From a virus (lineage: Duplodnaviria; Caudoviricetes): a DNA stretch of 24,138 nucleotides. The position numbers and the translations under genes were made by a program. Every line of letters begins with the position of its first letter. Position 1 is the first letter of the stretch. Positions 1-20,387 of this stretch are shown here, piece after piece. Where the stretch lies: positions 1-24,138 of the IMG/VR virus record IMGVR_UViG_3300025277_000150; one strand, given 5' to 3'. The notes below the pieces were generated by a model, which was given only the letters and a program-made list of their open reading frames with translations, was not told the DNA's origin and ran no database searches.

Positions 1-3000
1 ACTATAGGTTCTGCTGAACACATCGCTAAACAAATAGAGTTTGATAATGCTGCTAAAAAAGAAGGAGAAATATCTCAAAGAATAAGTGATAATGAATATA
101 ATAATCTTTTTGGACAATCAAGAAGAGAAGTAGCAGATAATAAAGTTGAATTAGCTAGAAGGTTTGGTGACGAACAAGTAGTTGATTATATGTTGGGTGA
201 TGAAGCTAATGGGTTTGTTATGAAACAACAACAATACAACGCAGGTAAGCTAAGAGAGATAATGACTTCTAGTAAACAAGAAGATATTACATTAGCTAAA
301 ACATTCCTAGCTTTGTCTTTTGAAAATATGATTAAAAAGCGTGGAGACTATGTAAGAGAAAACGCAGAACGATGGTTATCTATGTTTCCTCATATATACA
401 TGAGATTAAACAGATTGGCAACAGGTGGTCTTGCTGGTCTTAATACTACTCAATCAGATCAAACATATTTAAATACCATTATTCCTATTGTTATCTTAAG
501 TAATCTAGTTGTACCCGGACTTGAAAATGTTTCTGGTAATGTACAAAATACAAAGGGATGGGATAGTTTGGATGATAGGCGAAACGAGTTGTTTGATATA
601 GAAGAAGCAGCTAGAGAGTATGATAAAGAATTTGTTAAGAATACTGTTGATGGTAAGACTATGACAGAAGTACAATTTGATCAAATAAAAGAACTATCTC
701 TTTCTTTAATCAATGATCCATCTAGTGTCTCTTCCAGCCATCCTTTTTATGATTTAGCTAGAGAATATTCTAAGACATCTGAACAACTCATACAAAGAGC
801 TACTGATTATCTTGTTAATGCCCGTGTATTACAAGAAAGACATTTAGAAAAACCAGAGCATAGACTTATGCTATCTTTAAACAAAACAAAAATAGGAGAT
901 CTTATATCTAAGAATCCAGATGTTATTACTCAAGCTAAGGATGAAATAAGAAGACAAGTTTTAGAAAATCTGTCTTTAACAGATACTTCATCTATTGTAG
1001 ATCCTGTTTCTCTATATGCTTCTGGTATTCTACCTGACATAACATCAAGTGAAGTTAATCTTACTTTTATTAGAGGTTGGGATGATATGCCTTTGGTTAT
1101 CAGAAATAAGATTGATCAAGAAATTAAAAACGATCCTTCATTAATGACAATAACTGAATGGGATAGTGACATGCTTATGCTTGATACTAATCCTAGCTCT
1201 GAAGCTAAAGCTAGATTAAAGATATATAAAATTCGGAAACAAAAGGTTGAAGCATTATATAAGAAAGCAGATTACGGTGCTACTACTTTATCAGATATTA
1301 TAGGATCTGGTACTTCTGCTGGAGAAGCAGCTTCTATCATATCACAATATAATTCTTCATTAGAAGCACACAATACTTCTTTAGTAGATAAGTTTAGAGC
1401 ACATTCTGGAAGTTATCTGGCAACTATGATTCTTAGTGGAAATGGTTTAGCGAGAGATTCTGGTACTCATATGTTATTTACAAGTAAGGAAGCCAATAGT
1501 GTTGTTGGATTTAAATCATATCTTCTTATGAATAGAATTGGTTCTACTGCTTTTATTCCCCATTCAATTGTTGGAATACCTAAGTCTTATGAATTAATGA
1601 CAAACGATAAAACAAAGATGTTGTTTAATACCGATGTAGGTAGTATATCACGGGCTCTTACAAGAGGACCGGGATGGAATGCTGGAACAATTCTAGTAAT
1701 GAAGGAATTTACTAATTCAAATATAAACTTTTCTGACTTTCTGGATATGTTTAGAAATGTTATTGATAACTCGCCTGATTTAGATAGTATTAATGTTATA
1801 GATCAGTCTGTTCTAAACCTTAGTACAAAAATGAGAACTGATCTTAAAAGCAAGATATTAGATGATATTGAAACTCTAAGAAGAAAGATGCAGATTACTG
1901 GTGGTATTGCACTTAGACAATATAATAGATGGAATAGTGCAATTGATACTGCAAATGATTTTACTTCTACTTTGTTAGGACCAAACCTAACAGTAGCTAC
2001 GCTAACTGTTGAAGGTATGATGAATACTACCTCTCTTATGTTTGGCGGTCCTCAAGGATTAAAGAACTTTGCAACTGCTGTGATTGATTCTATAGCATTT
2101 GCTTCTTCTGGTAGTACTAAAAAAGGACGTAGCCAAATGCGTCAGCTTGCTAGAGAAATGGGATGGTATGCAAAACATAAGAGACATAGTATGTTTGAAG
2201 TACACCGTTCTGTTCTTTATGGCGATGAACTCCATGATGATGAAGTAGGTGGGCTTAAAAGATATCTTAGAAGAACTAAAACTTATTCTAATAGTGTAAA
2301 CGGTGGTATTAATATTGCTCTTAGAAGTCAATCTACTATGTCCTATAGAAAATGGTTTGCAGAAATTCTTGGAAATGATAAGCTTAAAGAATTAATTATT
2401 AAAGTAAATGATGCTAAAGAAAAAGGTGAGTTTAAAACTAGAGCAGATATTAAGAGGGTAGTAAAAGAAGTACTAGGTTCTTCTCATGGAAGAACTGAAG
2501 CTGTTTATCAAATGGCTAAAGCTGGTCTTTTAGATCTTGATATTCTACCTGATATTAAAACTCTTATTGATGAATCTGATGTTGTATATGGTGTACATAC
2601 TTATGGTGGTAGAATGAGAAACTACATAAGCGAAAAGACAGATACAGCAGAAAGAACAAGACTTAATGAGGTATTGCGGAAAATGAAGAATTGGGAAAAT
2701 ATCGTAGTACATATGAATATTGTTGATCCTAATGCTATGGATATTGATACAACGGATGTTCCTTTGTTTAGATGGTTAAGGCATTATAAGTCTTATCCAA
2801 ATATCTTTGCTGCTCAAAGAGTTTTTAGAGATTCGTCTAAATATAGTTTACCAGCCTTTGTAGCTCGTATGTTCCGTTTCATGCTTCAGGAAATGATATA
2901 TGCTATTATCACTATGCTAGCCGCCGGAATGTCAGCAGCTGTCTTAAAAGAAAGGTTTGAGAAAAACCCAATTAGTGAGATGACTGCACTCTTGCAAAGA

Positions 3001-3699
3001 AGTCCTATGTTAGGATACTGGGGAGAATTCATTGCTTCTACAGTAAGAACTATGCTATCAGCAGCCTCTGGAAAACTAGACGCTACTCCTTTGGCTAGAA
3101 CTTTACTACCTGTAGGTGGTTCTCTTATGAGATCTCAATCTCAATCTTTGGTCAATGCTATTAGAGGTAATACTGATGGAGGAGACTGGGCAAACTATGC
3201 TCGTATGTTAACTCTAGCTCCTGTCCCAGTCCTTGGACAAATTGCAGGTAATCCATTTACTAGGATAGCTGTAAGTAGAACAATGGGTAAAGAGAAGTCA
3301 GCCAATAGTATGAGACAGAAGATGGGGGACAGACTTGGGAAACCTAATGGTCGAGACAGCTTAAGAAATGGATTAGGTACGACCGTGGAACCCTCGGACT
3401 CAAGTCTATCCTCAAGAAATGTCTTCTTTACACCTGAGGAAAAGAACCTAAGTAATATCATGAAAGAACTATATCCAGATGCTATGAATTCACCATATGT
3501 TACAGATGTTGGTGTTTCTATAGATCCTGATGATATTAAAACTCCAGAAGCATCTCAAGTTATTCCTCAGTTACCTCCAAGAGATACTCCAGAGCCTAAG
3601 AGCAGTCGTGTCGATATTGCTAGTAAGAAACCTGACCCGATCCAAGCTATTTCAGAGTCTTCAAAACCTATGGAGATACCTCCAGAATTAATTGAATAA
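1..3699 (+). CDS. Large protein, 5'-truncated by the window (over 1230 aa); probable internal virion/ejection protein
   Basis: Frame 1 is open from base 1 through the ATG at 190 to TAA at 3697-3699. The protein is very large and predicted mostly helical, with hydrophobic segments and a Pro-rich tail near the C-terminus, and it lies just before the putative genome end. No diagnostic motif; the function is inferred from size and position. Confidence 0.45.
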   Translation, partial: TIGSAEHIAKQIEFDNAAKKEGEISQRISDNEYNNLFGQSRREVADNKVELARRFGDEQVVDYMLGDEANGFVMKQQQYNAGKLREIMTSSKQEDITLAKTFLALSFENMIKKRGDYVRENAERWLSMFPHIYMRLNRLATGGLAGLNTTQSDQTYLNTIIPIVILSNLVVPGLENVSGNVQNTKGWDSLDDRRNELFDIEEAAREYDKEFVKNTVDGKTMTEVQFDQIKELSLSLINDPSSVSSSHPFYDLAREYSKTSEQLIQRATDYLVNARVLQERHLEKPEHRLMLSLNKTKIGDLISKNPDVITQAKDEIRRQVLENLSLTDTSSIVDPVSLYASGILPDITSSEVNLTFIRGWDDMPLVIRNKIDQEIKNDPSLMTITEWDSDMLMLDTNPSSEAKARLKIYKIRKQKVEALYKKADYGATTLSDIIGSGTSAGEAASIISQYNSSLEAHNTSLVDKFRAHSGSYLATMILSGNGLARDSGTHMLFTSKEANSVVGFKSYLLMNRIGSTAFIPHSIVGIPKSYELMTNDKTKMLFNTDVGSISRALTRGPGWNAGTILVMKEFTNSNINFSDFLDMFRNVIDNSPDLDSINVIDQSVLNLSTKMRTDLKSKILDDIETLRRKMQITGGIALRQYNRWNSAIDTANDFTSTLLGPNLTVATLTVEGMMNTTSLMFGGPQGLKNFATAVIDSIAFASSGSTKKGRSQMRQLAREMGWYAKHKRHSMFEVHRSVLYGDELHDDEVGGLKRYLRRTKTYSNSVNGGINIALRSQSTMSYRKWFAEILGNDKLKELIIKVNDAKEKGEFKTRADIKRVVKEVLGSSHGRTEAVYQMAKAGLLDLDILPDIKTLIDESDVVYGVHTYGGRMRNYISEKTDTAERTRLNEVLRKMKNWENIVVHMNIVDPNAMDIDTTDVPLFRWLRHYKSYPNIFAAQRVFRDSSKYSLPAFVARMFRFMLQEMIYAIITMLAAGMSAAVLKERFEKNPISEMTALLQRSPMLGYWGEFIASTVRTMLSAASGKLDATPLARTLLPVGGSLMRSQSQSLVNAIRGNTDGGDWANYARMLTLAPVPVLGQIAGNPFTRIAVSRTMGKEKSANSMRQKMGDRLGKPNGRDSLRNGLGTTVEPSDSSLSSRNVFFTPEEKNLSNIMKELYPDAMNSPYVTDVGVSIDPDDIKTPEASQVIPQLPPRDTPEPKSSRVDIASKKPDPIQAISESSKPMEIPPELIE

Positions 3700-3713
3700 T
3701 TGGGTAAAGGAGA
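3694..3713 (+). promoter_or_regulatory. Putative phage RNAP promoter, variant B (GAATAATTGGGTAAAGGAGA)
   Basis: Exact 20-bp match to 24070-24089. Shares the core TTGGGTAA.GGAG with 12992 and 16789. Ends in a T7-like GGAGA. Confidence 0.65.
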
Positions 3714-3720
3714 GGGGGGA

Positions 3721-3817
3721 CCTAGGGACCTAGGTTTATATTATATATATAATATATAACTAGGGTAAACTAAGGACCTAGGAAATCGACTAGGGGTCAC
3801 GAATACACAGCTAGGGA
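3721..3817. repeat. CTAGG short-repeat cluster around an AT-only tract; candidate terminus/packaging/origin region
   Basis: CTAGG at 3722, 3730, 3760, 3778, 3790 and 3811, and CTAAGG at 3770. A/T-only tract at 3735-3759. Confidence 0.6.
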
Positions 3818-3899
3818 GAGATTATAAGAGGACTTTCTTTTCCCCCCGTACCCCCCTTAATTCTTTCGCTATAAAAAGCGATGGGGTACCGAGTGCTAA

Positions 3900-4214
3900 T
3901 TGAAACTAGCCTACTGCCCGTGGAAGGGCTTGCAGGTGGCTGGTGCTCATTATATCCTACCGGATATGGTGGGCATTATGGATAATCCTATTATCCAGAC
4001 CTTGCGAGGCATGGTCAAGATAGGAGCATCGTTGTTCCTAATTTGGCTCATGCTTCAAGCAGCTTATGAAAGTATGTCTATGCTTTCACAAGCGGTGGAT
4101 AGTTATGGTGTGGACTTCGCTTACAACGATCACCTCCTTTGGGCGGCGATTTCGTTTGGCGCAGCTTCAATCATAATCTCCATCATGTTTGTTCGCTCCC
4201 TTTATAGGGACTGA
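3900..4214 (+). CDS. Small hypothetical membrane protein (2 predicted TM segments); start uncertain, possibly a downstream ATG
   Basis: Hydrophobic stretches IGASLFLIWLMLQAAY and LLWAAISFGAASIIISIMFV. Confidence 0.5.
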   Translation: MKLAYCPWKGLQVAGAHYILPDMVGIMDNPIIQTLRGMVKIGASLFLIWLMLQAAYESMSMLSQAVDSYGVDFAYNDHLLWAAISFGAASIIISIMFVRSLYRD

Positions 4215-4448
4215 ACAGCATCTGCTGCATGATCCATTGGAGGTTGGTCTGCCAATGGCGGGGTTGTTGAACCCGATACCTTGTCACTCAAGGGGTTCAC
4301 TGTGGCTCATTCACATCTGATGAGGAGTGTCGTTGCTCTCCAGCGACAATCTCTAGGACACTTAGATCCTAAGCATCTACCTGATGATCATTTCGATAAG
4401 AGATAATTCTTATACCCTGAGCTAGCTAGGGTTGTACAGCTAGCAATC

Positions 4449-4817
4449 ATGTTTCCTTTGAAAGGACATGCCATGTCAAATCCAAATCTGTTCAAGCGTT
4501 TGCTTGGGCGCGTTTGGAAAAGTACTGTTGCCGAGCAACAGCCTCATAATGAGTCAGAGGTGAAAGACTCTAGTTTCGACCAACTAAAAGATACTCGTGA
4601 CGTTTGTAGGTTTGATACCTATGACCCAGATCGATCTATTCTTGTTAGTCGGCTTAAGAATTCTATCTTCATCTGGGAAATGCGCAACGGAGCAATCAAC
4701 CGTAGACGCATAAGTTCCAGACTTACATTAGAATTAGATCTATTTGCTAGATCTCCTAAAAATTCTATTAGTAAGGAAGAGCTCGTTGACATGGTTCGTA
4801 AAGAACTTGTTGACTAA
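4449..4817 (+). CDS. Hypothetical early protein; likely start at the MSNPN ATG
   Basis: 122-aa ORF with AAAGGA before the internal ATG, followed by a terminator-like hairpin. Confidence 0.6.
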   Translation: MFPLKGHAMSNPNLFKRLLGRVWKSTVAEQQPHNESEVKDSSFDQLKDTRDVCRFDTYDPDRSILVSRLKNSIFIWEMRNGAINRRRISSRLTLELDLFARSPKNSISKEELVDMVRKELVD

Positions 4818-4827
4818 GAGTGAACCT

Positions 4828-4861
4828 ATGGCACTACAGGCTACCGCTTGTAGTGTCATTT
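4828..4861 (+). terminator. Hairpin (terminator or processing site) after ORF 4449-4817
   Basis: ATGGCACTACAGGC-TACC-GCTTGTAGTGTCAT: 14-bp stem with 2 G-U pairs and a short T run. Confidence 0.5.
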
Positions 4862-4921
4862 GCCCTAGGTTAGTCGGGGCTGCAAAGTGACTAACTGAGT
4901 TCTTCCATAGGAGGCACTGCG

Positions 4922-5125
4922 ATAGCAGAACCTACTAAGAAGTCCGAAGCTATTGAGCGTTTGTTTCGTGAACTCAATGGTGGCGTGGACAGGCGTACTA
5001 TGATCGACTCCGATCTGTGTGCGGTCTGTGCTCAGCCAGCTACTGAGTTCAGCGACGCGCTCAGCCGCAAGGAATACACCATCTCTGGTATGTGTCAAGC
5101 ATGCCAAGATAGTGTGTTCCGCTAG
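4922..5125 (+). CDS. Small CxxC...CxxC zinc-finger protein (67 aa), not in the ORF track
   Basis: Reads AEPTKKSEAIERLFRELNGGVDRRTMIDSDLCAVCAQPATEFSDALSRKEYTISGMCQACQDSVFR*. AGGAGG at 4909-4914 precedes an ATA codon at 4922. Alternative starts are TTG 4961 and ATG 5000. Confidence 0.65.
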   Translation: MAEPTKKSEAIERLFRELNGGVDRRTMIDSDLCAVCAQPATEFSDALSRKEYTISGMCQACQDSVFR

Positions 5126-5445
5126 CGGTTAGCGTCGGAACAACGTCCCTCCGCCTGAGGTTTCGCCCTAGGGAGGGGCTTCATACCTGTGCTCTTCTCT
5201 ATGGAGAGCACGGGTATGAGGTACACGTTGTATCTCGTTCGACCTAAGCATGTCGTTAAAGGGCTTATGCTGATTCTTCCAAGGAAGAGTAGACTCAGGA
5301 GACGAGTCCGACTGAGGGCGTGATTCTCAAGGGGTTTTTAAACCGACAGGTTTTTGATCCTATTGCACTTGTTGTGCATTCCTTTACTCTCTGGGATAAA
5401 GAGAGGAACCCTTTACTACTTTCGAGTAGTATAAAGGAGATAATT

Positions 5446-7239
5446 ATGAAGAAATTCATAGTTATGCTTGAGGCTCTGCCCAAGCGTTATCGGGAACCTC
5501 TGGTCGCCTTCGGGTTGACTAAGTTCATCACCCTTCGTATGCAGCTACGTAGGGACAACCGCAGTATCCATCAGATCATTGATCAGATGCGAGAACAGGT
5601 TGGTCTGTCTAACTTTGGTTACTCTTTGAGTCTTGATGACTTGAAGAAGGCCGAGTTGGCGATTTGCGCTGGTGATGCCGTACTTCCTTCGACTGATCGT
5701 ATGGAGGGGTACGTTTTGGAATCACCGCACGTAGTTGGTCGGGACGATTCAAGGCGATCCGTCATGAGTCGTAACGGTAATGCTCAAGTTCCTAAGCGTG
5801 TGACGAACGCACTTAACTATCTCGGTAGTGTGGGTTTTGATATCCACCCTGAGATGGAGCACCTTCTTCTGGATAATAAGGAGAAGTGGTTGTGCGATCA
5901 GACCAAGCCGTTGTATCTTGAGCTGGAGCGAATTGAGGATTGGGATAAGTTCTTCCTAACCTCCTACCTCGATTGGAGAGGTCGCTTCTACGCAGGTTCT
6001 GGTATCCTGTCTTATCAAGGAGATGCCACTAATCGTGGGTTGGTCTGCTTTGCAGATCCATCTCCTTTCTCCGATAAGCAATGGGATTCCATTCGTACTT
6101 TCCTTCGTGGAGAGTATGGTGTCGCTCCCGATGTTCTCTCGTTTGCTTCTGAGGACTATACTCTTAAGCAACAGGCAGGATGGCTAGCACAAACAGATCG
6201 CACATTTGCCGAGCGATATATTGTGCAGCTCGATACCCACAGTTCTGGTCCACTTATGGTGGCTCTCATGATGAGAGACGAGCGTTTGTTGCGTGTCATC
6301 CTAACTTCAGACTTTTATATGGCGTTCCTTAAGCCGTATATGGAGTCTGGCACATCTTGGGCCAAGAGGCTGAGTGCTATATCTGAGGACGAAACTAGAG
6401 ATCAGGTTGCTAAGCCCTGTGGTATTAACACCATGTATGGGACAGCGGCTGATGCTCTGGCATATTCGTATGCAGGATTGACAATCAACGGTGTTACGCC
6501 TGAGATGTCTATCCTTGATTCTGGCAGCAAAAGTGATCCTAAGCCCGGTTTGGTGTCACTCCTTGAAACTGGAGTGGTTCTTGAATCGAATCTATCTTGG
6601 GAGATCCAACCCTGTCTTCGTCCTTACTTGATGAGTCTGTCCGTTTCTGAACGGTTACGACAGCTCTGCTACCTCGCAAGAGATATGCAGAACGCACTCT
6701 TCAGTGAGTTTCCCTCCATTAGGGTTTATCTCAACACACTCTCTGGTGCTGCTAATAGCTGGTGGAAGAATACGCAAACTTCTTTCAGTTTCCAGCACCC
6801 TCTTGATAAGAATATCATCATCAAGCCTTTCCCGCACAAGCGTACTGATGTGCCTGTAAAGGATTATATTGATATTCGTGTCCTTTCCAAACGGCTCCGT
6901 AGGAACTTGTGTCCAATGGAGTTTGGTCGAGGTCGAGTCTCTGCGTGTGCGCCTTGCTTCACACACATGATTGATGCCGTGATCGTGACCCTTGTGGTTA
7001 ACGAGTGCGAGCGAATGGATATTCCTATCGCTCCTATACACGACTCCTTCGGTGTGCCGATAGCTTATGTTGATGTTGTTAAAGACATCTTCAAGCAAGT
7101 CGTGATCTGGATGTTCACTGAGAATGATTATCTAGGTGACTTCTGCAAGGCTCATGACAAGACCCTCCCTGAGCGGTCTAGTCTTTCCGAGTTTGACATT
7201 GAAAGTCTGCTCGATGAGCTTCCATCCTGTATAGGGTGA
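5446..7239 (+). CDS. Divergent, compact single-subunit (T7-family) DNA-dependent RNA polymerase, RNAP-1 (about 597 aa)
   Basis: Motifs LDWRGRFY..LSYQG, motif A VQLDTHSSG, motif B R....KPCGINTMYG (Kx7YG), APCFTHMIDA and motif C IHDSFG, all in the T7 order. Start placed at ATG 5446 behind AAGGAG. Confidence 0.88.
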   Translation: MKKFIVMLEALPKRYREPLVAFGLTKFITLRMQLRRDNRSIHQIIDQMREQVGLSNFGYSLSLDDLKKAELAICAGDAVLPSTDRMEGYVLESPHVVGRDDSRRSVMSRNGNAQVPKRVTNALNYLGSVGFDIHPEMEHLLLDNKEKWLCDQTKPLYLELERIEDWDKFFLTSYLDWRGRFYAGSGILSYQGDATNRGLVCFADPSPFSDKQWDSIRTFLRGEYGVAPDVLSFASEDYTLKQQAGWLAQTDRTFAERYIVQLDTHSSGPLMVALMMRDERLLRVILTSDFYMAFLKPYMESGTSWAKRLSAISEDETRDQVAKPCGINTMYGTAADALAYSYAGLTINGVTPEMSILDSGSKSDPKPGLVSLLETGVVLESNLSWEIQPCLRPYLMSLSVSERLRQLCYLARDMQNALFSEFPSIRVYLNTLSGAANSWWKNTQTSFSFQHPLDKNIIIKPFPHKRTDVPVKDYIDIRVLSKRLRRNLCPMEFGRGRVSACAPCFTHMIDAVIVTLVVNECERMDIPIAPIHDSFGVPIAYVDVVKDIFKQVVIWMFTENDYLGDFCKAHDKTLPERSSLSEFDIESLLDELPSCIG

Positions 7240-7244
7240 AGCCC

Positions 7245-7280
7245 AGCCCTCTCTACCTTAGCGGGTAGGGAGGTGCTTTT
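7245..7280 (+). terminator. Rho-independent terminator-like hairpin after RNAP-1
   Basis: CCTCTCTACCT-TAGC-GGGTAGGGAGG (11 bp, 2 G-U) followed by TGCTTTT. Confidence 0.6.
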
Positions 7281-7330
7281 GCTCACAGAACGTCTGTGAG
7301 TGTCTTTGTCCCTTTTCTTAGGAGGTTGCT

Positions 7331-7777
7331 ATGAAAAGCAACAAATCAATCCTTCTTAAAAGTCAAGAAGGATATTCAATGGTGTGCTTCACTATCAAGC
7401 CATCCTCGAACATGGTAACGGTTACCAAGACGCGAAAGCCCTTGGTTACCATCCCATTGTTTGATCTGGCTAGCCGTGTGAAGGAGGAACTCTCCCTTGG
7501 TTTCAAGATTGAGGAAGTTCCGTCTAGTCTGCGGCACTTTGAGGCTGACACCATTAACTACCAGTACGATATCGAGGGTATGGTAACGATGTGGGCTAAT
7601 ATAGAAGAGATTCTATGTAATTCTCTCATATCTTCCTATACTCTTGGGGTCAAGGGTGGTGACTTTGGGTTAGCTAAGAAAGCTTTCTTTGATACTTTCA
7701 ATGCACATCACAAAGGCTCTAAGACTCTTCGTATTCGTAGTGGATTAGCTGACGCTCGCTATACGCGGATCAGTTGA
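7331..7777 (+). CDS. Hypothetical protein (148 aa) directly downstream of RNAP-1
   Basis: Strong RBS AGGAGG before ATG 7331; no motif recognised. Confidence 0.7.
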   Translation: MKSNKSILLKSQEGYSMVCFTIKPSSNMVTVTKTRKPLVTIPLFDLASRVKEELSLGFKIEEVPSSLRHFEADTINYQYDIEGMVTMWANIEEILCNSLISSYTLGVKGGDFGLAKKAFFDTFNAHHKGSKTLRIRSGLADARYTRIS

Positions 7778-7821
7778 TCTCAGGGGCTTACACCTCTTAC
7801 CAGAGGGTAGGTCCTTTCCAG

Positions 7822-8016
7822 TCTCGCCTTCGGCGGGAACAACCTTCGGTTTCAACCTTCGGTTCAACCTTCGGTTCAACCCTTCGTACTACCGGAACTT
7901 CGTACCTGATTCCCTTCGGGCTCCATTCTCCGGCCCTTCGTGCCTCTCAGGCTTCGCCTCAGGGCTTTCAGCCCCTCGGAGGTCCTTCGGACCCCCCTAG
8001 GAACGCTTCGCTTAGG
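7822..8016. repeat. Array of about 12 TTC-triloop mini-hairpin/CTTCG units (GAA loops on the minus strand), including 3 near-tandem AACCTTCGGTT
   Basis: TCTCGCC-TTC-GGCGGGA 7822; AACC-TTC-GGTT 7841, 7854, 7866; CCC-TTC-GGG 7912; AGGC-TTC-GCCT 7949; GGGCT-TTC-AGCCC 7962; GGTCC-TTC-GGACC 7981; GC-TTC-GC 8005; imperfect copies at about 7881, 7894 and 7932. Confidence 0.85.
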
Positions 8017-8286
8017 AACGATTCTCTGGTCAGGAGCGGGGACCCCCGCGTTTATGGGAACCCCTGCTTTTTTCCCATCAACCTTGCGCCGTCCACCGGA
8101 GCTGTTGGACATCCAACCATCTTTGGTAAGTCCAAGGTCAGCTCCTCGTGTACGGCTATGTGAAGCGAAGAGGGAGATGTTATGGCATATTAGTGCTAAA
8201 ATCTTAAGGAATTACTCCAAAGCGTAATGCGGCTTAAGATTGATCAGTCCACCGACGCGAGGCTGACTTAACATCTCCTCTCTTCG

Positions 8287-8342
8287 GGGATCAGCTCTCT
8301 ATTGTGGCTCGATATAGCAGGGAACAGTAGAGAGCCGATCCC
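8287..8342 (+). promoter_or_regulatory. Long hairpin, candidate RNase III-type processing site or regulatory stem
   Basis: GGGATCAGCTCTCTATTGT / ACAGTAGAGAGCCGATCCC: 19-bp stem with one G-U and one mismatch, upstream of the 8393 gene. Confidence 0.4.
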
Positions 8343-8392
8343 TGCAGAGATTTAAATTCATTTAGCTTTAACCGATCTAAGGAGGATCAATC

Positions 8393-8617
8393 ATGACTCA
8401 AATCGTCATAGAAATCTACCACCCATACTCCGTTGCTGTTCAATGCGATGGTGACTGGGACTGTTATAACTGCCTAACGGAGGCAGCTGAAGTAGCAAAG
8501 GGCTACATGATGGAGCACCCAGATGCCTCCATCGAAATCGTGAACTCATTTGCCACGAACGAGTGGCAACAACGAAAGTGGCGGCGAAGGCTCGCCAGAG
8601 AGGAAGTCATATCATGA
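8393..8617 (+). CDS. Hypothetical early protein (74 aa)
   Basis: Strong RBS TAAGGAGG; ATGA overlap with the next gene. Confidence 0.75.
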   Translation: MTQIVIEIYHPYSVAVQCDGDWDCYNCLTEAAEVAKGYMMEHPDASIEIVNSFATNEWQQRKWRRRLAREEVIS

Positions 8618-8874
8618 CTCAACTAGACAAGTTCCGTAATGCGGAACAATACAAGGACACGATTCTTCGTGGAATCGCGCTCAACCCCAAGGCAGGAACT
8701 GCCCGTGGCAATGCCAAGGAAGTCTTGTCTGAACGAGGTGTAACCCTCGAAAGCGTAGTCGAGAAGGACTACAGTACTCTGGACGAAGGACAGCTGGAAA
8801 ACATCATCAGCATGGAACATTCCAGAGAAGCAACGAAGGCTGCTGCTCAAACTGAGCTTGACAGTCGAAACTAA
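8614..8874 (+). CDS. Hypothetical early protein (MTQLDKF..., 86 aa)
   Basis: ATG 8614 coupled to the upstream stop (ATGA); followed by a terminator. Confidence 0.7.
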   Translation: MTQLDKFRNAEQYKDTILRGIALNPKAGTARGNAKEVLSERGVTLESVVEKDYSTLDEGQLENIISMEHSREATKAAAQTELDSRN

Positions 8875-8889
8875 AGAAGGCTAAGAGCG

Positions 8890-8919
8890 GAGGGGTGAAA
8901 TTCCCCTCTTTTCTTTTTT
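8890..8919 (+). terminator. Rho-independent terminator
   Basis: GAGGGG-TGAAATT-CCCCTC followed by TTTTCTTTTTT. Confidence 0.8.
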
Positions 8920-8934
8920 CTCGAATATAAATAG

Positions 8935-9400
8935 GGCAAACACTCTACGCTAGAGGAAGTAACTAGCGTAGGGTTTCTCCAAAGGATACTCAGGGTTAAT
9001 CTACTGAGGGAGACTAATAACATCCTGCCTAGACGAGAGCGTAGACCTTATAGGTCGTGGTAATCGTTGCACTCAAATCCTAGTGATTGTTTAGGCAAAA
9101 TCAGGAGTGTATGGTCGTAGTCTAGACCATAGCGTAGAGCTTAGGCTGTGTACGCTGAAGTGTCCGTTAAAGTGCGGAAAGTTATCGTTTTCGAGGAGGA
9201 ACTCCTTCAAAATGATAATAGAACTGCTATTGGGTACTACAGGTAGATTCTAGAGTCCCCCAATAGTGAGAACCACATAGATTTTTTTAAGAAAAGTGGT
9301 GTTAACTTAAGACCGTTCACGGGGAGTAGTAGTAAGACTCGAAGGATCCTAAATGGTATGATAAGAACCGTACCGAGGCTACCCTACTACTGCTCCCCAA
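8935..9400 (+). ncRNA. Candidate structured non-coding RNA/leader (series of hairpins; no ORF of 60 aa or more in the track)
   Basis: CTACGCTAG/CTAGCGTAG, GACCT/AGGTC, TATGGTC/GACCATA, AGCGTA/TACGCT, CTATTGGG/CCCAATAG and GGGGAGTAGTAGTA (9321-9334)/TACTACTGCTCCCC (9385-9398). Confidence 0.35.
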
Positions 9401-9505
9401 CAAACTACAGGAGAAAATTGTGTATGATATGAATCAAATATACTGGATGAGGATTATCATTATACTATGTATTAATCACACAGTCTATTGTTAGGAGGCA
9501 CAAAC

Positions 9506-9691
9506 ATGAGTAAGAAGTACGGAGTCTGGGTAACTGGAAAGCATAACGTAAAAGGATGGCTCATAGATGATGATGGCTACTGTACTTATGACACCCTAAG
9601 AGAAGCTAACAAGGATGCTAATGAATTTAGCAACGCCTTCAGGGGAAGAGTAACAAAATACGAAGGAAGAAAGTTTAAGAAACCATCTTGA
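9506..9691 (+). CDS. Hypothetical early protein (MSKKYGVW..., 61 aa)
   Basis: AGGAGG RBS before ATG 9506. Confidence 0.7.
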   Translation: MSKKYGVWVTGKHNVKGWLIDDDGYCTYDTLREANKDANEFSNAFRGRVTKYEGRKFKKPS

Positions 9692-9715
9692 CATTCTTGA
9701 AATCTATGGTATAAT
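9688..9715 (+). promoter_or_regulatory. Host sigma70-type promoter
   Basis: TTGACA (9688-9693), 16-nt spacer, TATAAT (9710-9715), with extended -10 TG. Confidence 0.8.
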
Positions 9716-11339: not shown

Positions 11340-11451
11340 TCCTTGGTATAAACTTCATGTTTATTCAGAATTACTGTTGACATGTGCCATACGGTGTGGT
11401 ATAATAGTCAGCATTGGCTATCTTATATGGAGATACTACAATGCAGGTTGA
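11320..11451 (+). CDS. Small hydrophobic peptide (43 aa), not in the ORF track
   Basis: GGAGG RBS; MYNLKNDPWYKLHVYSELLLTCAIRCGIIVSIGYLIWRYYNAG*; overlaps a promoter. Confidence 0.4.
   Translation: MYNLKNDPWYKLHVYSELLLTCAIRCGIIVSIGYLIWRYYNAG
11377..11405 (+). promoter_or_regulatory. Host sigma70-type promoter (perfect consensus)
   Basis: TTGACA (11377-11382), 17 nt, TATAAT (11400-11405), with TG extension. Confidence 0.85.
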
Positions 11452-12982: not shown

Positions 12983-12991
12983 CCATCTCCC

Positions 12992-13038: not shown

Positions 13039-15486
13039 ATGATAAAATGGAATGAGTTATCTCCTGAGATACAGGAACAAAGGCTATCACTACAGTCTGC
13101 TCTTGAGGAACAGATGCTTTATGATGGTAGTAATAAATACTGGGATGAATATTCCAGAGCCTGTGATGAGGGTATACCTGAACAGCAGTTACTAGACTCT
13201 GTAGTTTTTCAGCTCGCTCCTGTCTATCAAGAATGGATAGATAATATATCTAAAAATAGAAAGACACCTGACTGGGTTCATCCCCTGTTAACTCTAGGTG
13301 CTGCTAAGATGGCTGACCTAACTGTTAGGTGTGTCATTAGAATGTGGCTCAAAGCCAGCATGTTTGGGTTTGGAAGAGATGATATCAAGAGTACGCCCCC
13401 TCTTGCACAGCATGTAGCAAGAACAATATCCAAGGAAGCTATTCATATCATCGCCTACCAGACGGCAAAGGAAACTTTCAAGGACGATTGGAGAAAGCAA
13501 TCCAAGTTCATTAAGAACTGGACAGAGAAAAGATGTATTGCTTTCACAAAGAAAATGCTACAGATTCCCCGCATGACCTTGAAACAAAGAGATGACTTCG
13601 GACACCACATGATTAGGATTGCTGAGCTGTCCTCTGTCATCCATACATTCAGGGATAAGTATCCTCACGGAAAGAACCAATGGAGAAACAAACTATTCGT
13701 CACACTTGATGACAGTATCCTAAAAGATATACACAATAAGCACAAGTTCCTAGAAAATACGACATTATTGTATAGACCTATGGTATGTCCACCTGTGGAT
13801 CATACACTGGAACGAAGCGGAGGGTATCTCCACCACTGGATCAGGAAAGAAGTGGTCCATAGATACAGCTCAGATTATATTACTGAAGAAAGAAAGATTA
13901 ATCAACAATACTCTGAGCCTAGTCAGAAGGTTCTTGACGCAACCAATGCTATGCAAAGAACAGAGTGGACTATTAACACCAGAGTTTTTGATGTTATGAA
14001 TAGCTTGTTCAAGAACAACACAAGACTATGTAATCTTCCTGCCTATTCTTTCGATGCCTTCTCCTTTGGAGATGAGTATCCTAAAGATAGTGGTAAGCAG
14101 GAGCAAGCAATCTGGTGTCAACGCAGAGAAGAAGCGTGGTCTGACTGGTTCAAGGAAGAACAAAAGAGAGGACGGATGTTGGTAAGACTACAGCTTGCTA
14201 TTAATCTAACTCTAAATGGATTCTTTTATATGCCCATGACTCTGGACTTCAGAGGCAGGGGATATACTACCTGTGAACTACTTAGTTGTCAAGGTTCTGA
14301 CTTTGATAGAGGCTTGATAATGTTTGCGAACGCTGTACCACAGACAGAAAGAGGAAGATACTGGATGAAGATCCATATAGCTAACCTCTTTGATATTGAC
14401 AAAGTTAGTTTCAGTGACAGAGTTAAATGGTTTGATGATAATCAAGAAATGTTAAAGAGAATTAATGAAGACCCATACCAGAACAGAGAATGGATAGATG
14501 ATGCGGTCAAGAAAAACAAATCATTCCAAAGAATAGCAGCTGTCTTTGACTACTTCAGAAAAGATGGCATGACTCAGGTTCCTGTCCAAATGGACGGTGC
14601 TTGTAATGGAAGCCAACACTGGGCTGCTATCATGAGAGATCAGGATCTTGCCAAGCTTGTAAATATTATACCGAATGAAGTTCCCCAAGATCTTTATCAG
14701 TATGTAGCAAACAAAAGCACTGAACATTTAAATGATAACAAAGAAAACCCTTGGTATAAAAAGTTTTTAGAATACTGGAAAGGAAATCTTGACAGAAAAA
14801 TTACGAAACGCAGTACAATGTGTGATGCCTACGGGCTCACGTTCTATGGCATTCAGAAGTACATGAAACTTGAGGGTCATGTGGACTGGGTTCCTCATGA
14901 AACACAAGCAGGAGCAATCGTAGAGCTTGCAAGAGCTGTTCAAGCTGGTCTTGGTTCTGCTCTTGAGTCTGCCAATCATGGAAAAGAATATCTTAAAGAT
15001 ATAACTAATATGATATCTACTATGGGACATCACTTAACATATACTGTACCAAGTGGATTCAAGGTAGTGCATAACTATACCAAGATCCGAAAGAGGAGAA
15101 GCTTAGCTGCTCTCTTTAATAATAAAGAGCTTATATTTTGGGAGGATGCTGGAGATCTTGATGCGAAAAAAGCAGAGCAAGGTATTCCACCAAATTATAT
15201 TCACTCTTTAGATGCAAGTCATTTGGTTTGCACTGTGTTTATACTGTATAATATGGGTATCAATTCTTTCAGTATGATACACGATTCATATGGATGTCAC
15301 GCCCCGTTTGTGGATGACATGATAAAAATAACGAAGGAGCAATTTTATGAAATGCATCAAGTCAATCTTCTCGAAGAGCTTAAGAACCAGATCGAAGAAA
15401 GATACAGAATTAGACTACCCAACCCCCCAGTCACAGGACAGCTTAGAATCAAGTCAGTTCTGGAATCGGATTATTTCTTCTCCTGA
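13039..15486 (+). CDS. Canonical T7-like single-subunit DNA-dependent RNA polymerase, RNAP-2 (about 815 aa)
   Basis: DFRGRGY, motif A QMDGACNGSQH, motif B RKITKRSTMCDAYG, PPNYIHSLDA, motif C IHDSYG, C-terminal YFFS; AAGGAG RBS before ATG 13039. Confidence 0.97.
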   Translation: MIKWNELSPEIQEQRLSLQSALEEQMLYDGSNKYWDEYSRACDEGIPEQQLLDSVVFQLAPVYQEWIDNISKNRKTPDWVHPLLTLGAAKMADLTVRCVIRMWLKASMFGFGRDDIKSTPPLAQHVARTISKEAIHIIAYQTAKETFKDDWRKQSKFIKNWTEKRCIAFTKKMLQIPRMTLKQRDDFGHHMIRIAELSSVIHTFRDKYPHGKNQWRNKLFVTLDDSILKDIHNKHKFLENTTLLYRPMVCPPVDHTLERSGGYLHHWIRKEVVHRYSSDYITEERKINQQYSEPSQKVLDATNAMQRTEWTINTRVFDVMNSLFKNNTRLCNLPAYSFDAFSFGDEYPKDSGKQEQAIWCQRREEAWSDWFKEEQKRGRMLVRLQLAINLTLNGFFYMPMTLDFRGRGYTTCELLSCQGSDFDRGLIMFANAVPQTERGRYWMKIHIANLFDIDKVSFSDRVKWFDDNQEMLKRINEDPYQNREWIDDAVKKNKSFQRIAAVFDYFRKDGMTQVPVQMDGACNGSQHWAAIMRDQDLAKLVNIIPNEVPQDLYQYVANKSTEHLNDNKENPWYKKFLEYWKGNLDRKITKRSTMCDAYGLTFYGIQKYMKLEGHVDWVPHETQAGAIVELARAVQAGLGSALESANHGKEYLKDITNMISTMGHHLTYTVPSGFKVVHNYTKIRKRRSLAALFNNKELIFWEDAGDLDAKKAEQGIPPNYIHSLDASHLVCTVFILYNMGINSFSMIHDSYGCHAPFVDDMIKITKEQFYEMHQVNLLEELKNQIEERYRIRLPNPPVTGQLRIKSVLESDYFFS

Positions 15487-16848: not shown

Positions 16849-17088
16849 TTGGACACAAAAACCCTCAAGAACGAGTACCGAGATGGACTCGAAAAGGAAG
16901 AAGTAATGGCAGAGAAACCAGCTGTTGAAGTTGAAAATGTTGTACGATATCTTAATGATGTTGCCGCAGCCCTAAGCCATGTTGTTAGCGGTGTTCAAAA
17001 GACAATCAGTCAATTGAATCACCAAGTATACACAATTAAACCAAATAATGAAATCACAGATCAAGAAGGAGAAAATAATGATGACTAA
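16849..17088 (+). CDS. Hypothetical coiled-coil protein (79 aa)
   Basis: AAGGAG RBS, TTG start. Confidence 0.6.
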   Translation: MDTKTLKNEYRDGLEKEEVMAEKPAVEVENVVRYLNDVAAALSHVVSGVQKTISQLNHQVYTIKPNNEITDQEGENNDD

Positions 17089-17599
17089 GATTTCCCAACT
17101 ATACACTGATACTTTAGACGTACAGTGGGCGCACCTACACAAGCCAGACACTAAGTTTGGTAACCCCGGCAATCATAATATTACCGTGGTTGTTGATGAG
17201 GTACTTCAAACTAACCTTGATAATCTCATGAAAGAGACAGGTGCTAAGAAGATTAATGGTATGCGAGAAGTTGAAGGTGTAACAACCATCAAGATCAAGT
17301 CCACCATTTATACTAAAGATGGTACAAATACTTTCCCTTGTAAAGATGCAGCTGCTGAAGATACAGAAGCCGTACCTTTTGGCGGTGACAAAGTTCGTCT
17401 CCGTCTCGCCCCGATGGTAATTTCAAGGGACAATTCACTTAGTTTGTTTCTCAATGGTTGTCAGATCATAGAGAAGAACGAACAATCGAACACTGGAGGC
17501 TTCACTCCAACCGATGGATACGATGGCTCAGACTACAAAGCACCTGTAGCTACAACTCCTGAGGTTCCTGAAGTTTCCGATGACGATGTTCCATTCTGA
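17078..17599 (+). CDS. Single-stranded DNA-binding protein, T7 gp2.5-like
   Basis: WAHL.KPDTKF start, L.LNG.QIIE, acidic tail ending DDDVPF; position before resolvase and primase; AAGGAG RBS. Confidence 0.85.
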   Translation: MMTKISQLYTDTLDVQWAHLHKPDTKFGNPGNHNITVVVDEVLQTNLDNLMKETGAKKINGMREVEGVTTIKIKSTIYTKDGTNTFPCKDAAAEDTEAVPFGGDKVRLRLAPMVISRDNSLSLFLNGCQIIEKNEQSNTGGFTPTDGYDGSDYKAPVATTPEVPEVSDDDVPF

Positions 17600-18349: not shown

Positions 18350-18691
18350 ATGGGTGAAATAAGATCTAATGTAAATGAGTGGAGTAGAGAAAAAAAAGTC
18401 AAAGATATAATGAAAAGAAGAGAAAGAGTGGGAGGAGTTAAGAAATGGAAAAAAGAAAACATGCAAGTAAAGAACGACAGCTTCATGACTCCCTCGGAAC
18501 AGAAGAATAAAAAATCATGGATGCCTCATATAGAAAAAGGATCACTGGCAGAAAATGGTAAGGGAGATTATAGAAGACCTCCAGCAATTACTAAAGAAGA
18601 ATTAGGTAATAGATATGATTTAGCATTTGGTAAAATAACTGAAAAGGAGTTTAAGAAGCGTGAACGCACAAGAAGAAAGTCAAGTAGTTGA
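18350..18691 (+). CDS. Basic hypothetical protein
   Basis: AAGGAG RBS; GKGD.RRP motif; overlaps the primase start. Confidence 0.55.
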   Translation: MGEIRSNVNEWSREKKVKDIMKRRERVGGVKKWKKENMQVKNDSFMTPSEQKNKKSWMPHIEKGSLAENGKGDYRRPPAITKEELGNRYDLAFGKITEKEFKKRERTRRKSSS

Positions 18692-20387
18692 CAGAGAACC
18701 CTGTCCATCATGTAGGAACAAGGGTAATGATAATTCAGGAGATAATTTAATAAGATACTCAGATGGTCATGGCTATTGCTTTGCCTGTGAGTACTTTGAA
18801 AAAGGAGATGGAATGACATACCAAACTACTATACCTACTAGCTTAAGTCTATCTCCAATCAATGGGGAGTGTGTTGGAAAACCTGATCGTCTTATTGAAA
18901 TGAAGACTACCAAGCTGTATGGATATCAAACCGCAAGAGTTAATGGAAAGAATGTTGACATCGCTAATTATTATCTTAGCAGCGGAGAGCTTATTGCTCA
19001 GCATCTAAGATCTGAAACTAAACAATTCCATTGGCGTGGAGATACAAGCAACCTACCTCTGTGGGGTCAACACCTATGGAGTGGCAGCGGAAAGAAAAAT
19101 AAACGATTGATTATTACAGAGGGCGAAATTGATTGTATGACATGTAATCAATTGCTTCAAGGAAAATGGCCTGTGGTTTCTTTACCAAACGGTGTAGCTT
19201 CAGCGGTGAAATCAATCAAACAAAACCTAGAATTTGTCACAAGCTACAACGAGATCGTACTATGCTTTGATCAAGACGAGGCTGGTCGTGCTGCTATGGC
19301 TAGGGTTGCTGAGATTCTACCTCCGGGCAAGTGCCACATTGCATCCCTACCATATAAGGATGCCAACGAATGCTTGATGAAGAATACTGGCAAAGAAGTT
19401 ATCAATGCGTTGTGGCAAGCACAAGTGTATGCGCCTGATGAAATAATACATGTTAAAGATATTGTTAATAACCTAGAAAATATGGAGCCTAAAGTATATG
19501 GATTCCCTTTTGATACGCTTACTGAATTCCTTGTCGGTCAACGATCAGGTGAAATTACTTTATGGTGTTCTGGAACAGGATCCGGAAAGACCACAATCCT
19601 CAAAGAAATGGTCATGCACCATCTTGAAGAAGGTCGTAGTGTCGGTGCTATTATGCTTGAAGAATCTCCGCAGGAGATCTTAGATGATATGATTTCTATC
19701 ATGATCAACAGACCAGTTCGTGCGCTTAAGGCAGCAAAGACTATGAATGATCTTCGTATTAAACTAGGAAAACCTCCTATTGATATGAGTATTGTCAGTG
19801 ACTTTACTGATGAAATGTATAACGATGCAAAGGAAAGGCTTAATCAAACCAACCTGTATATATACGATCACCTTGGTCACAGTGGTTTGAATAATCTCTT
19901 CGCTCGTATGGAATACATGGCAGTATCTTTAGGAGTTGAAGTAATTATACTCGATCATATTACCGCAGCTGCTGTTGGTCTGGCTATGGTAGAGGACAAG
20001 TTTGACTCTGAAAGAATGGTCATTGATAATCTTATGAAAGAAATGAGAAACCTTGTCTCCCGTACTGGAGTACGGATTGATGTGGTATCTCAACTTAAGA
20101 AGACCAACAAAGCATACGAAGAAGGAGATAGAATTACTCTTCAAGATCTTCGAGGCTCTGGATCCTTAGGTTCAGTTCCCAATACCGTGATAGCATTGGA
20201 ACGAGATCGACAGAATTCTGATGATCGTCTTGCTAATACTACAACAGTTAGAGTTCTAAAGAATAGACTGACTGGTAGAGCTGGTGTTGCTTCTGCTCTA
20301 TACTATGACAGAGGCACAGGTAGGCTTCGTGAAATTGTTTTTGCCCTTGACGATACTGGACAGATTATGCTTGGAAATGACGAATGA
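18660..20387 (+). CDS. DNA primase-helicase, T7 gp4-like
   Basis: Zn-binding CPSC...CFAC, TOPRIM ITEGEID and FDQDEAG, Walker A GTGSGKTT, LDHIT, DLRGSG, LKNR.TG. Confidence 0.96.
   Translation: MNAQEESQVVDREPCPSCRNKGNDNSGDNLIRYSDGHGYCFACEYFEKGDGMTYQTTIPTSLSLSPINGECVGKPDRLIEMKTTKLYGYQTARVNGKNVDIANYYLSSGELIAQHLRSETKQFHWRGDTSNLPLWGQHLWSGSGKKNKRLIITEGEIDCMTCNQLLQGKWPVVSLPNGVASAVKSIKQNLEFVTSYNEIVLCFDQDEAGRAAMARVAEILPPGKCHIASLPYKDANECLMKNTGKEVINALWQAQVYAPDEIIHVKDIVNNLENMEPKVYGFPFDTLTEFLVGQRSGEITLWCSGTGSGKTTILKEMVMHHLEEGRSVGAIMLEESPQEILDDMISIMINRPVRALKAAKTMNDLRIKLGKPPIDMSIVSDFTDEMYNDAKERLNQTNLYIYDHLGHSGLNNLFARMEYMAVSLGVEVIILDHITAAAVGLAMVEDKFDSERMVIDNLMKEMRNLVSRTGVRIDVVSQLKKTNKAYEEGDRITLQDLRGSGSLGSVPNTVIALERDRQNSDDRLANTTTVRVLKNRLTGRAGVASALYYDRGTGRLREIVFALDDTGQIMLGNDE

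Follow-up and report, generated by a model that had tools for sequence, protein, structure and literature searches.

What part is played by a second, short RNA polymerase (RNAP) of the T7 family in a phage that also encodes a full-length one? This question is raised by a 24,138-nucleotide (nt) stretch of tailed-phage DNA (IMG/VR record IMGVR_UViG_3300025277_000150; the whole stretch is called the window), in which Pfam and PHROG comparisons detected genes of a T7-like phage, i.e. those for a primase-helicase, a family A DNA polymerase, an exonuclease, and RusA, together with two PF00940 genes, RNAP-1 and RNAP-2. The public runs holding most of the window were marine metagenomes (14 of the 18 listed runs held at least half of its words); contigs of up to 67,988 nt carried identical proteins, and many contigs had identical or near-identical copies of RNAP-1. 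As judged from its motifs and predicted right-hand fold, RNAP-1 is a T7-like single-subunit RNAP (PF00940), a real and well conserved enzyme that is probably active, and it is neither a canonical gp1, nor an N4 RNAPII, nor a Chaseviridae RNAP. The reading preferred here, at a rough probability of 0.45, is that RNAP-1 would be a first-wave enzyme similar to N4 RNAPII, needing opened DNA and probably a small helper.

nt 5446–7239, + strand: RNAP-1, short T7-family RNAP of 597 amino acids (aa) (PF00940, E 1.8e-10; phrog_414, E 2.7e-26; fold match to T7 RNAP, Z 30–32)
nt 5434–5439, + strand: ribosome binding site AAGGAG of RNAP-1, 6 nt upstream of the ATG at 5446
nt 13039–15486, + strand: RNAP-2, full-length T7-type RNAP of 815 aa, ahead of the replication genes (Pfam/PHROG)

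RNAP-1 gene and its shortened domains

RNAP-1 scored 40.7 bits against PF00940, for which the cut-off is 22. The ATG start at 5446 appeared sound, because AAGGAG is located 6 nt upstream and the 42-aa in-frame extension from a possible GTG start at 5320 aligned poorly with a 56%-identical homologue; the GTG was thus rejected. Chance or an assembly artefact does not account for the short length, since near-identical copies occurred on many contigs and the 25 family members measured were equally short, all having a short N-terminus and thumbs of 50 to 81 aa (versus 105).

Key residues were located at V119, D176, R180, D263, K323, Y331, H507, and D533 in RNAP-1, at V298, D403, D519, K590, Y598, H722, and D749 in RNAP-2, and at V316, D421, D537, K631, Y639, H784, and D812 in T7 RNAP. 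The helix V..A.N was therefore offset by 179 residues relative to RNAP-2 (V119 versus V298) and by 197 relative to T7 (V316), reproducing the figure of about 180 missing N-terminal residues given in an earlier note on this DNA, and the distance from this helix to DxRGR, which spans the thumb, was 57 aa in RNAP-1 compared with 105 aa in both RNAP-2 and T7, again as that note had counted. A further shortening, absent from the note, was found in the palm insertion between DxRGR and motif A (87 versus 116 aa, i.e. 29 aa short). An expansion of the fingers and specificity-loop region had also been claimed; the span of 176 aa from the motif-B Tyr to H..DA (124 in RNAP-2, 145 in T7) and the approximately 50 extra fingers residues were recovered, but the specificity-loop segment up to H..DA was of normal length (55, 51, and 54 aa in RNAP-1, RNAP-2, and T7, respectively). 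The surplus amounted to 48 aa over RNAP-2 and only 30 aa over T7, because the excess sits before the specificity loop, where the equivalents of Y639 and P730 (motif B to loop start) were separated by 121, 73, and 91 aa in the same order.

nt 5446–5682, + strand: reduced N-terminal domain, residues 1–79, with five predicted helices and no beta-hairpin (AlphaFold2 model; overlays on T7 begin at model residues 80–86, T7 260–267)
nt 5800–5973, + strand: short thumb, V119–D176, 57 aa (residue counts against T7 and RNAP-2, 105 each)
nt 6232–7044, + strand: catalytic core with D263 (motif A), K323 and Y331 (motif B), H507, and D533 (motif C), invariant in the 29-row alignment A5
nt 6478–6630, + strand: fingers insertion, about residues 345–395, placed after motif B and before the long fingers helix (model, profile alignment, and counts)
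nt 6799–6954, + strand: specificity-loop segment, P452–P503, 51 aa (50 in T7), net charge +7, with a predicted beta-hairpin at 474–487 (predicted local distance difference test [pLDDT] 60–73)

In base composition, the block 3700–8900 had a raised G+C content (45–49% versus 32–42%) and a negative AT skew, and A-ending codons made up 13% of RNAP-1 versus 27–34% of five other genes.

Predicted structure of RNAP-1

The AlphaFold2 model built on the 29-row alignment had a pLDDT of 81.9 and a predicted template modelling score of 0.83. Residues 2–79 formed five helices and residues 84–111 were ill-defined; no beta-hairpin was present in model residues 1–85, and RPOL_N was not matched in RNAP-1 by the Pfam scan. 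In VIA overlays, model residues 80–597 were superposed on residues 260–883 of T7 RNAP in elongation complexes with Z of 27–32 (maximum 32.1) and a root-mean-square deviation (rmsd) of 3.3–4.0, as exemplified by 1s77 (Z 30.8, rmsd 3.6, 451 residues aligned), whereas profile alignment began at T7 residue 288. Overlays on 1cez and 1aro were looser (rmsd 5.5–5.9) and reached back to T7 residue 78; thus, the helices at the N-terminus are possibly what is left of the promoter-binding domain. N4 RNAPII (6dt7) was not among the fold-search matches listed for the model.

The AT-rich loop (residues 93–101) and the intercalating hairpin (232–242) of T7 RNAP (PMC11617373) both lie upstream of the part overlaid by the model, which starts at T7 260, and the 45 residues of T7 between G225 and P270 corresponded to 13 in RNAP-1 and about 26 in some short relatives, as read from a manual alignment of moderate confidence. 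No T7-like N-terminal domain was predicted, and the active site was intact and conserved, so that on both structural points the model agreed with the earlier note; its reduced N-terminal domain is indeed shortened, with the correction that the helices remain and the domain is not absent. RNAP-1 has the T7-length specificity loop and lacks a complete N-terminal domain, including the AT-rich loop and the intercalating hairpin, and is thus not a canonical autographivirus gp1.

RNAP-1 family and phylogeny

RNAP-1 was a member of a family of fast-diverging enzymes of about 590–720 aa, encoded behind the giant gene of marine phages similar to AG-10.1. Among 25 of these enzymes, the equivalents of R425, D537, K631, and D812 were kept in all, that of Y639 in 24, and that of H784 in 19. 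Divergence was pronounced, with 15–26% identity to RNAP-1 of the window in seven of eight genomes whose RNAP-2 was 52–59% identical. A profile search of 1.84 billion representatives gave six proteins at E<=1e-30, all of 572–639 aa, word-index homologue searches gave one relative only, the first scan of viral contigs gave none, and cultured phages gave motif-C matches only, over 14–18% of the protein. The more divergent relatives were reached via genomes found through RNAP-2.

Duplication of RNAP-2 as the origin of RNAP-1 was rejected, the two not being sisters (approximately unbiased test, p about 1e-5). In a 33-row tree, from which 59 of 92 rows were left out, the short enzymes, the RNAP of Chaseviridae phage phiEcoM-GJ1 (GJ1), and N4 gp16 were placed across a 97% branch from the full-length enzymes. 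A single origin of all short RNAPs behind the giant gene did not emerge from the 92-row FastTree, which gave seven changes and set the 705–722-aa type apart. In four relatives (P0061, P0064, P0065, and P0181) the enzyme had 526–573 aa and had lost the specificity loop (22–23 aa), with the catalytic residues kept. No RNAP-1 was found between the giant gene and RNAP-2 in G019–G028, G033, G034, and L157, which would be natural negatives in a comparison of promoter layouts.

Comparison with known polymerases

Genes of the RNAP-1 type are already in print, without analysis, since 2025: 23 AG-10.1 genomes (of 47–48) possess an additional RNAP of about 650 aa downstream of a gene for 3274–5566 aa, four of them carrying PF00940 (PMC12361551). 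The accessible part of that paper proposes only that the two RNAPs transcribe different genes; it does not describe the domains of the enzyme, any terminal repeat or hairpin, or a mechanism. Since the gene class is in print, its presence here is less of a surprise. RNAP-1 shares with these genes its position (giant gene ending at 3699, RNAP-2 at 13039), a similar size, and genomes of about 68 kb, and RNAP-2 of the window was 53–60% identical to those of four uncultivated virus genomes listed as AG-10.1, a likeness by RNAP-2 only as the capsid and terminase genes fall outside the window. The additional RNAP is probably undercounted in AG-10.1, because the family profile found it in 24 of 25 informative end-motif loci (see below). 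Biochemistry on the AG-10.1 enzymes or on a Chaseviridae RNAP was not found in the literature searched, which did not cover subscription papers.

Other short T7-family enzymes are N4 RNAPII (673 aa), Chaseviridae RNAP (648 aa), and KSY1 gp14 (610 aa). In N4 RNAPII, both the thumb and the N-terminus are truncated; this enzyme binds DNA only when it is single-stranded (ssDNA), needs gp2, and makes messenger RNA (PMC4496689); the gp2 equivalent of LUZ7, Drc, is unrelated to gp2 (PMC7145618). Like RNAP-1, N4 RNAPII (gp15 plus gp16, 6dt7) is shortened in both of these parts, clusters with the short enzymes in trees, and is encoded by a phage that has a giant protein and at least two RNAPs of its own. 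It differs in being a heterodimer, whereas RNAP-1 holds all motifs in one chain of 597 aa, and in a specificity-loop segment of 42 aa with net charge -1 versus 51 aa and +7; furthermore, the late enzyme is the host RNAP in N4 and would be the phage RNAP-2 here. Long direct repeats occur in Chaseviridae, whose RNAP is early (PMC8472413), and in Mangalitsa the RNAP gene was located inside the 3,234-nt terminal repeat (1–3234). The GJ1 enzyme differs from RNAP-1 in lacking the fingers insertion (75 aa), and the window has a second, full-length RNAP. T7 RNAP shares with RNAP-1 the fold of residues 260–883, the catalytic motifs, the length of the specificity loop, and the early position, but has an N-terminal domain of 312 residues versus about 110, a thumb of 105 versus 57, a palm insertion of 116 versus 87, and fingers 30 residues shorter.

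Position of RNAP-1 near a probable genome end

nt 3784–3804, + strand: conserved end motif AATCGACTAGGGGTCACGAAT, followed by a CCCCCC-TACCCC tract, in a single copy in the window; probable left genome end
nt 8062–8074, + strand: CCCTGCTTTTTTC, resembling the T7 class II pause and concatemer-junction signal (class II consensus, PMC11617373); probable inner repeat edge
nt 3784–8062, no strand: probable direct terminal repeat of about 4.3 kb containing RNAP-1, with approximate edges (contig depth and motifs)

The 21-nt end motif occurred once in each of 28 viral contigs (L148–L175, including about six near-duplicates), and a large open reading frame ended within 1 kb upstream in all 28. RNAP-1 was encoded 0.1–5.5 kb after the motif in 24 of these loci (1.7 kb in the window), one locus lacked it over 9 kb, and three were too short. 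Use of this motif as the RNAP-1 promoter is unlikely, because it is near-invariant while RNAP-1 is 15–57% identical among genomes, and it is present in genomes without RNAP-1, where variants of it were also seen. The G-rich and C-rich tracts beside it (3784–3865) could pair as a long hairpin.

Contig depth over about 3.8–8.1 kb was approximately doubled, being 1.5–3.2 times that of the right flank in eight of eight runs and 1.9–2.7 times that of the left flank in six of eight. This is a hint and falls short of proof, because contig depth does not measure copy number and the runs, all dating from a single year, were chosen with the region. The left step coincided with the motif at 3784, directly preceded by an RNAP-2-type promoter motif at 3694, and the right step fell roughly at CCCTGCTTTTTTC (8062), with contig ends scattered from 7,741 to 9,047. 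Together, depth and motifs suggest that the 3.8–8.1 kb block is a terminal repeat of about 4.3 kb holding RNAP-1. The terminal repeat of T7 is 160 bp, and its class II pause and phiOR serve packaging. The class II pause consists of ATCTGTT plus a U-run (PMC11617373) and is located at T7 position 161. Among ten genomes with both edge motifs or the pause motif, RNAP-1 was inside the implied repeat in five and outside in five; its constant trait is thus nearness to the left end. The sequence (A/C)(C/T)CTGCTTTTTTC was observed 0.2–5.2 kb after the end motif in L029, L034, L042, L127, L129, L131, L151, L163, L173, L174, and L175, so that terminal repeats would differ greatly in length among relatives.

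Hairpins, promoters, and terminators

nt 7825–7993, - strand: seven C-GAA-G triloop hairpins with stems of 3–5 bp, on the template strand for rightward transcription (shuffle test)
nt 7248–7302, + strand: terminator-like hairpin, then a second hairpin with a ACAGAACGTCTGT core kept in L010 and compensatory flanks (comparison with L010)
nt 3694–3713, + strand, with others at 12991, 16788, and 24070: promoter-like AATA(A/G)TTGGGTAA(A/T)GGAG, four copies, probably read by RNAP-2 (motif repeats)
nt 9688–9715, + strand: first full match to the sigma-70 consensus (12/12), located 5.9 kb after the left motif, with a second at 11377–11405 (consensus scan)

The seven GAA-triloop hairpins, which lie 3' of the 148-aa gene described below and have the geometry of N4 promoters, compare with a shuffle mean of 0.24, and none of 1000 shuffles reached seven; L010 has four. 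In 20 genomes, their density on the template strand 400–1300 nt after RNAP-1 was 1.51 per kb, compared with 0.06 per kb outside this zone or on the opposite strand. The same scan detected hairpins immediately ahead of N4 genes 1 and 2, which from their position would be P1 and P2. Template-strand hairpins with a C:G-closed GNA triloop are a feature of the early promoters of N4 virion RNAP as well as of the window, where the stems are shorter and the hairpins are clustered downstream of RNAP-1, not before the first gene. They may act with RNAP-1, with the giant protein, or in the processing of genome ends. A "UUCG tetraloop RNA" explanation for the CTTCG array was rejected, as few copies fit and the pairing suits triloops.

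In the region 3.7–13 kb and in L010, no repeated promoter-like motif specific to RNAP-1 was found (16-mers, up to 3 mismatches), only the RNAP-2 type. Of 23 loci (including L163), only 3 had a sigma-70 match of at least 10/12 ahead of RNAP-1, and the Rfam scan gave one chance-level match.

Candidate helper proteins

nt 7331–7777, + strand: basic protein of 148 aa, isoelectric point 9.25, candidate helper (one sequence homologue, 31%, L010)
nt 8614–8874, + strand: helical protein of 86 aa, second helper candidate, following RNAP-1 in seven of seven subclade genomes

The 148-aa protein had no Pfam or PHROG match and no usable Atlas match. At 17 of 27 loci, RNAP-1 was followed at a distance of 14–129 nt by a gene for 148–229 aa (one a duplicate and one apparently unrelated), and most of these genes formed one divergent family; a profile from eight of the downstream proteins found two held-out cases. 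This family of 160–230 aa, with the C-terminal motif F...F(P/H)G(C/S), was represented in L149, L153, L156, L162, L165, L172, L122, L125, L148, L168, L158, L169, L171, L163, and L057; at L163, the profile match exposed a missed RNAP-1 of 608 aa just upstream. Five of the seven closest relatives of the window carry a gene for about 86–110 aa after RNAP-1 instead, which the window has at 8614. N4 gp2 was unmatched among the proteins downstream of RNAP-1 (best E about 0.5).

Giant protein upstream of RNAP-1

nt 1–3699, + strand: C-terminus of the giant protein, which has 5306 aa in cluster member P0037 and whose weakly RNAP-like domain lies outside the window

A conserved domain resembling RNAPs in its motif A (an invariant D followed by D.Y) and its motif B (R...K.P.....Y) was present in the giant protein of ten genomes, namely P0037 (about 1790–2600), L139, L123, L124, L125, L130, L132, L137, L138, and L140, and was not detected in the stretches examined of L131, L133–L136, and L141. 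Compared with full-length RNAPs, it gave an hhalign probability of 52% (E 1.5e-4 over motif B), and in G009 it matched PF00940 with E 1.1e-4; the AlphaFold model had a pLDDT of 42.8, with no Foldseek match, and there was no match to PDB profiles. By eye, a DEDD-like exonuclease motif and an HExxxH motif followed this domain, with no clear motif C. In its motif B, DEDD-type motif, and HExxxH, the giant protein is similar to N4 virion RNAP, the fold not confirming this, and it is possibly a virion RNAP.

Proposed role of RNAP-1 and alternatives

By analogy with T7, the probable terminal repeat at 3.8–8.1 kb would enter the cell first. Devoid of the AT-rich loop and intercalating hairpin, RNAP-1 would be unable to melt duplex promoters alone and would therefore read opened DNA through its specificity loop, with the GAA-triloop hairpins at 7825–7993 as the most likely start sites, either its own or those of the RNAP-like domain of the giant protein. 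The need for ssDNA or hairpin templates proposed in the earlier note thus receives circumstantial support from these nearby hairpins and from the N4 RNAPII precedent. The 148-aa or 86-aa neighbour would be a helper resembling gp2 or Drc. RNAP-1 would express the first genes and help to pull the DNA in, before handing over to host sigma-70 promoters (9688 and 11377) and then to RNAP-2 (12991). If so, a widespread group of marine phages may enter and start expression by a relay nearer to N4 than to T7. With 597 aa versus 883 in T7, and relatives of 526–573 aa also lacking the specificity loop, the family would form a natural deletion series for what is needed beyond the catalytic core, and a small single-chain enzyme able to initiate on hairpins or ssDNA could readily be expressed and might be useful as a tool.

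Several observations weigh against this first-wave role. The RNAP of GJ1 (gp01, 648 aa) resembles RNAP-1 in its short N-terminus (152) and thumb (66), single chain, and location at the left genome end, and it is the only annotated RNAP of that myovirus, which has nine putative ordinary duplex promoters. Long branches weaken both trees. The 148-aa protein was not retrieved by the downstream-family profile, sharing the C-terminal motif only (hhalign 5%), and a gene of its type was missing after RNAP-1 in five of the seven genomes of the subclade, so that the earlier proposal of this product as the partner receives mixed support, from gene position in the 17 loci and not from these comparisons. 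The hairpin stems of 3–5 bp compare with 5 and 7 bp in two N4 controls; of the 18 genomes with sufficient sequence, only 9 had a hairpin within the 400–1300 nt zone, which was picked after the data had been seen; and the same scan found such a hairpin at position 72 in the T7 terminal repeat, for which reason the hairpins may be genome-end signals. Moreover, a terminator-like stem with a T-run at about 8036–8074, after the cluster, could stop any transcript. The depth data came from 8 of the 18 listed runs, all chosen with this region and from one year, as contigs with a flat depth each, and X3 and X12 lacked the left step, a single contig running across that edge. The sigma-70 scan was blunt, giving two matches in the first 750 bp of T7.

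A larger scheme, a three-polymerase relay of the N4 style, is considered doubtful as a whole. In it, a giant protein that carries an RNAP-like domain and is ejected would be followed by a minimal single-chain RNAP of about 600 aa, encoded twice by virtue of the 4-kb repeat and reading GAA-triloop hairpins with a co-evolving helper of 150–230 aa, and then by the T7-type RNAP. RNAP-1 and its relatives of 526–600 aa would, on this scheme, be the smallest working T7-family polymerases.

The primase idea of the earlier note is a live rival, not the best reading. RNAP-1 would then make primers or R-loops, short RNAs at the hairpin cluster priming leading-strand replication or copying of the long repeat, and products would indeed be short because the terminator-like stem follows the hairpins at once. 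T7 RNAP primes replication (PMC8472413), but this phage has its own intact T7-type primase-helicase and its full-length RNAP-2 could prime. Likewise, a halved thumb should destabilise elongation, given the role of the thumb (PMC11617373), yet N4 RNAPII makes messenger RNA despite a truncated one (PMC4496689). The hairpins lie 70–240 nt before the pause similar to the T7 junction, as the T7 hairpin at 72 lies before ATCTGTT at 161, whereas RNAP-1 was outside the implied repeat in five of ten genomes, and a clade of relatives, G019–G028, G033, and G034, has the end motif and no RNAP-1. On balance, priming appears unlikely.

It also seems improbable that RNAP-1 is a self-sufficient duplex-promoter enzyme like that of Chaseviridae, with the basic specificity loop and the fingers insertion replacing the lost contacts. 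GJ1 has the same architecture (hhalign 99.4%) and Chaseviridae RNAP genes are also found in a long terminal repeat; however, the GJ1 promoters are annotated only as putative, and an alignment read by eye shows a hairpin-like segment behind the N-terminal helix of GJ1 RNAP, which the subclade of the window lacks. The T7-length loop with net charge +7 and the fingers 30 aa longer than in T7 would suit such contacts, but P0061, P0064, P0065, and P0181 have lost the specificity loop too, and the promoter-like repeats found were of the RNAP-2 type. Finally, a decaying or inactive relic, or a protein acting only in DNA binding or against the host, is highly improbable, for although the gene diverges extremely between genomes, is missing in some relatives, and has DxRGR eroded in several (its D retained in 19 of 25), all 25 enzymes, at 15–57% identity, have the two catalytic aspartates and the equivalents of K631 and R425, and the frames are intact and of similar length, with a strong ribosome binding site and a confident fold.

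Other features of the window

nt 18660–20387: intact T7-type primase-helicase (Pfam/PHROG)

The gene at 17048–17599 matched phrog_112 (gp2.5-like single-stranded DNA-binding protein, E 3.8e-7) and no Pfam family; AG-10.1 is described as lacking such a protein. An unannotated gene of 820 aa in Lactococcus phage KSY1 (gp033; L145, 15987–18449) possessed RNAP motifs A and B together with a C-like motif, and its fold had a match in BFVD; KSY1 may thus have two T7-type RNAPs. Upstream of RNAP-1, a long hairpin at 5140–5221 had flanks shared by contigs of related strains, with differing inner letters, and is a candidate RNase III-like site or other signal. A long imperfect stem at 8089–8157 was conserved in L010. 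After a terminator at 8889–8909, a gene-free stretch of 550 nt (8920–9480) contained short GCGTAG repeats, and three runs joined other sequence before 8922.

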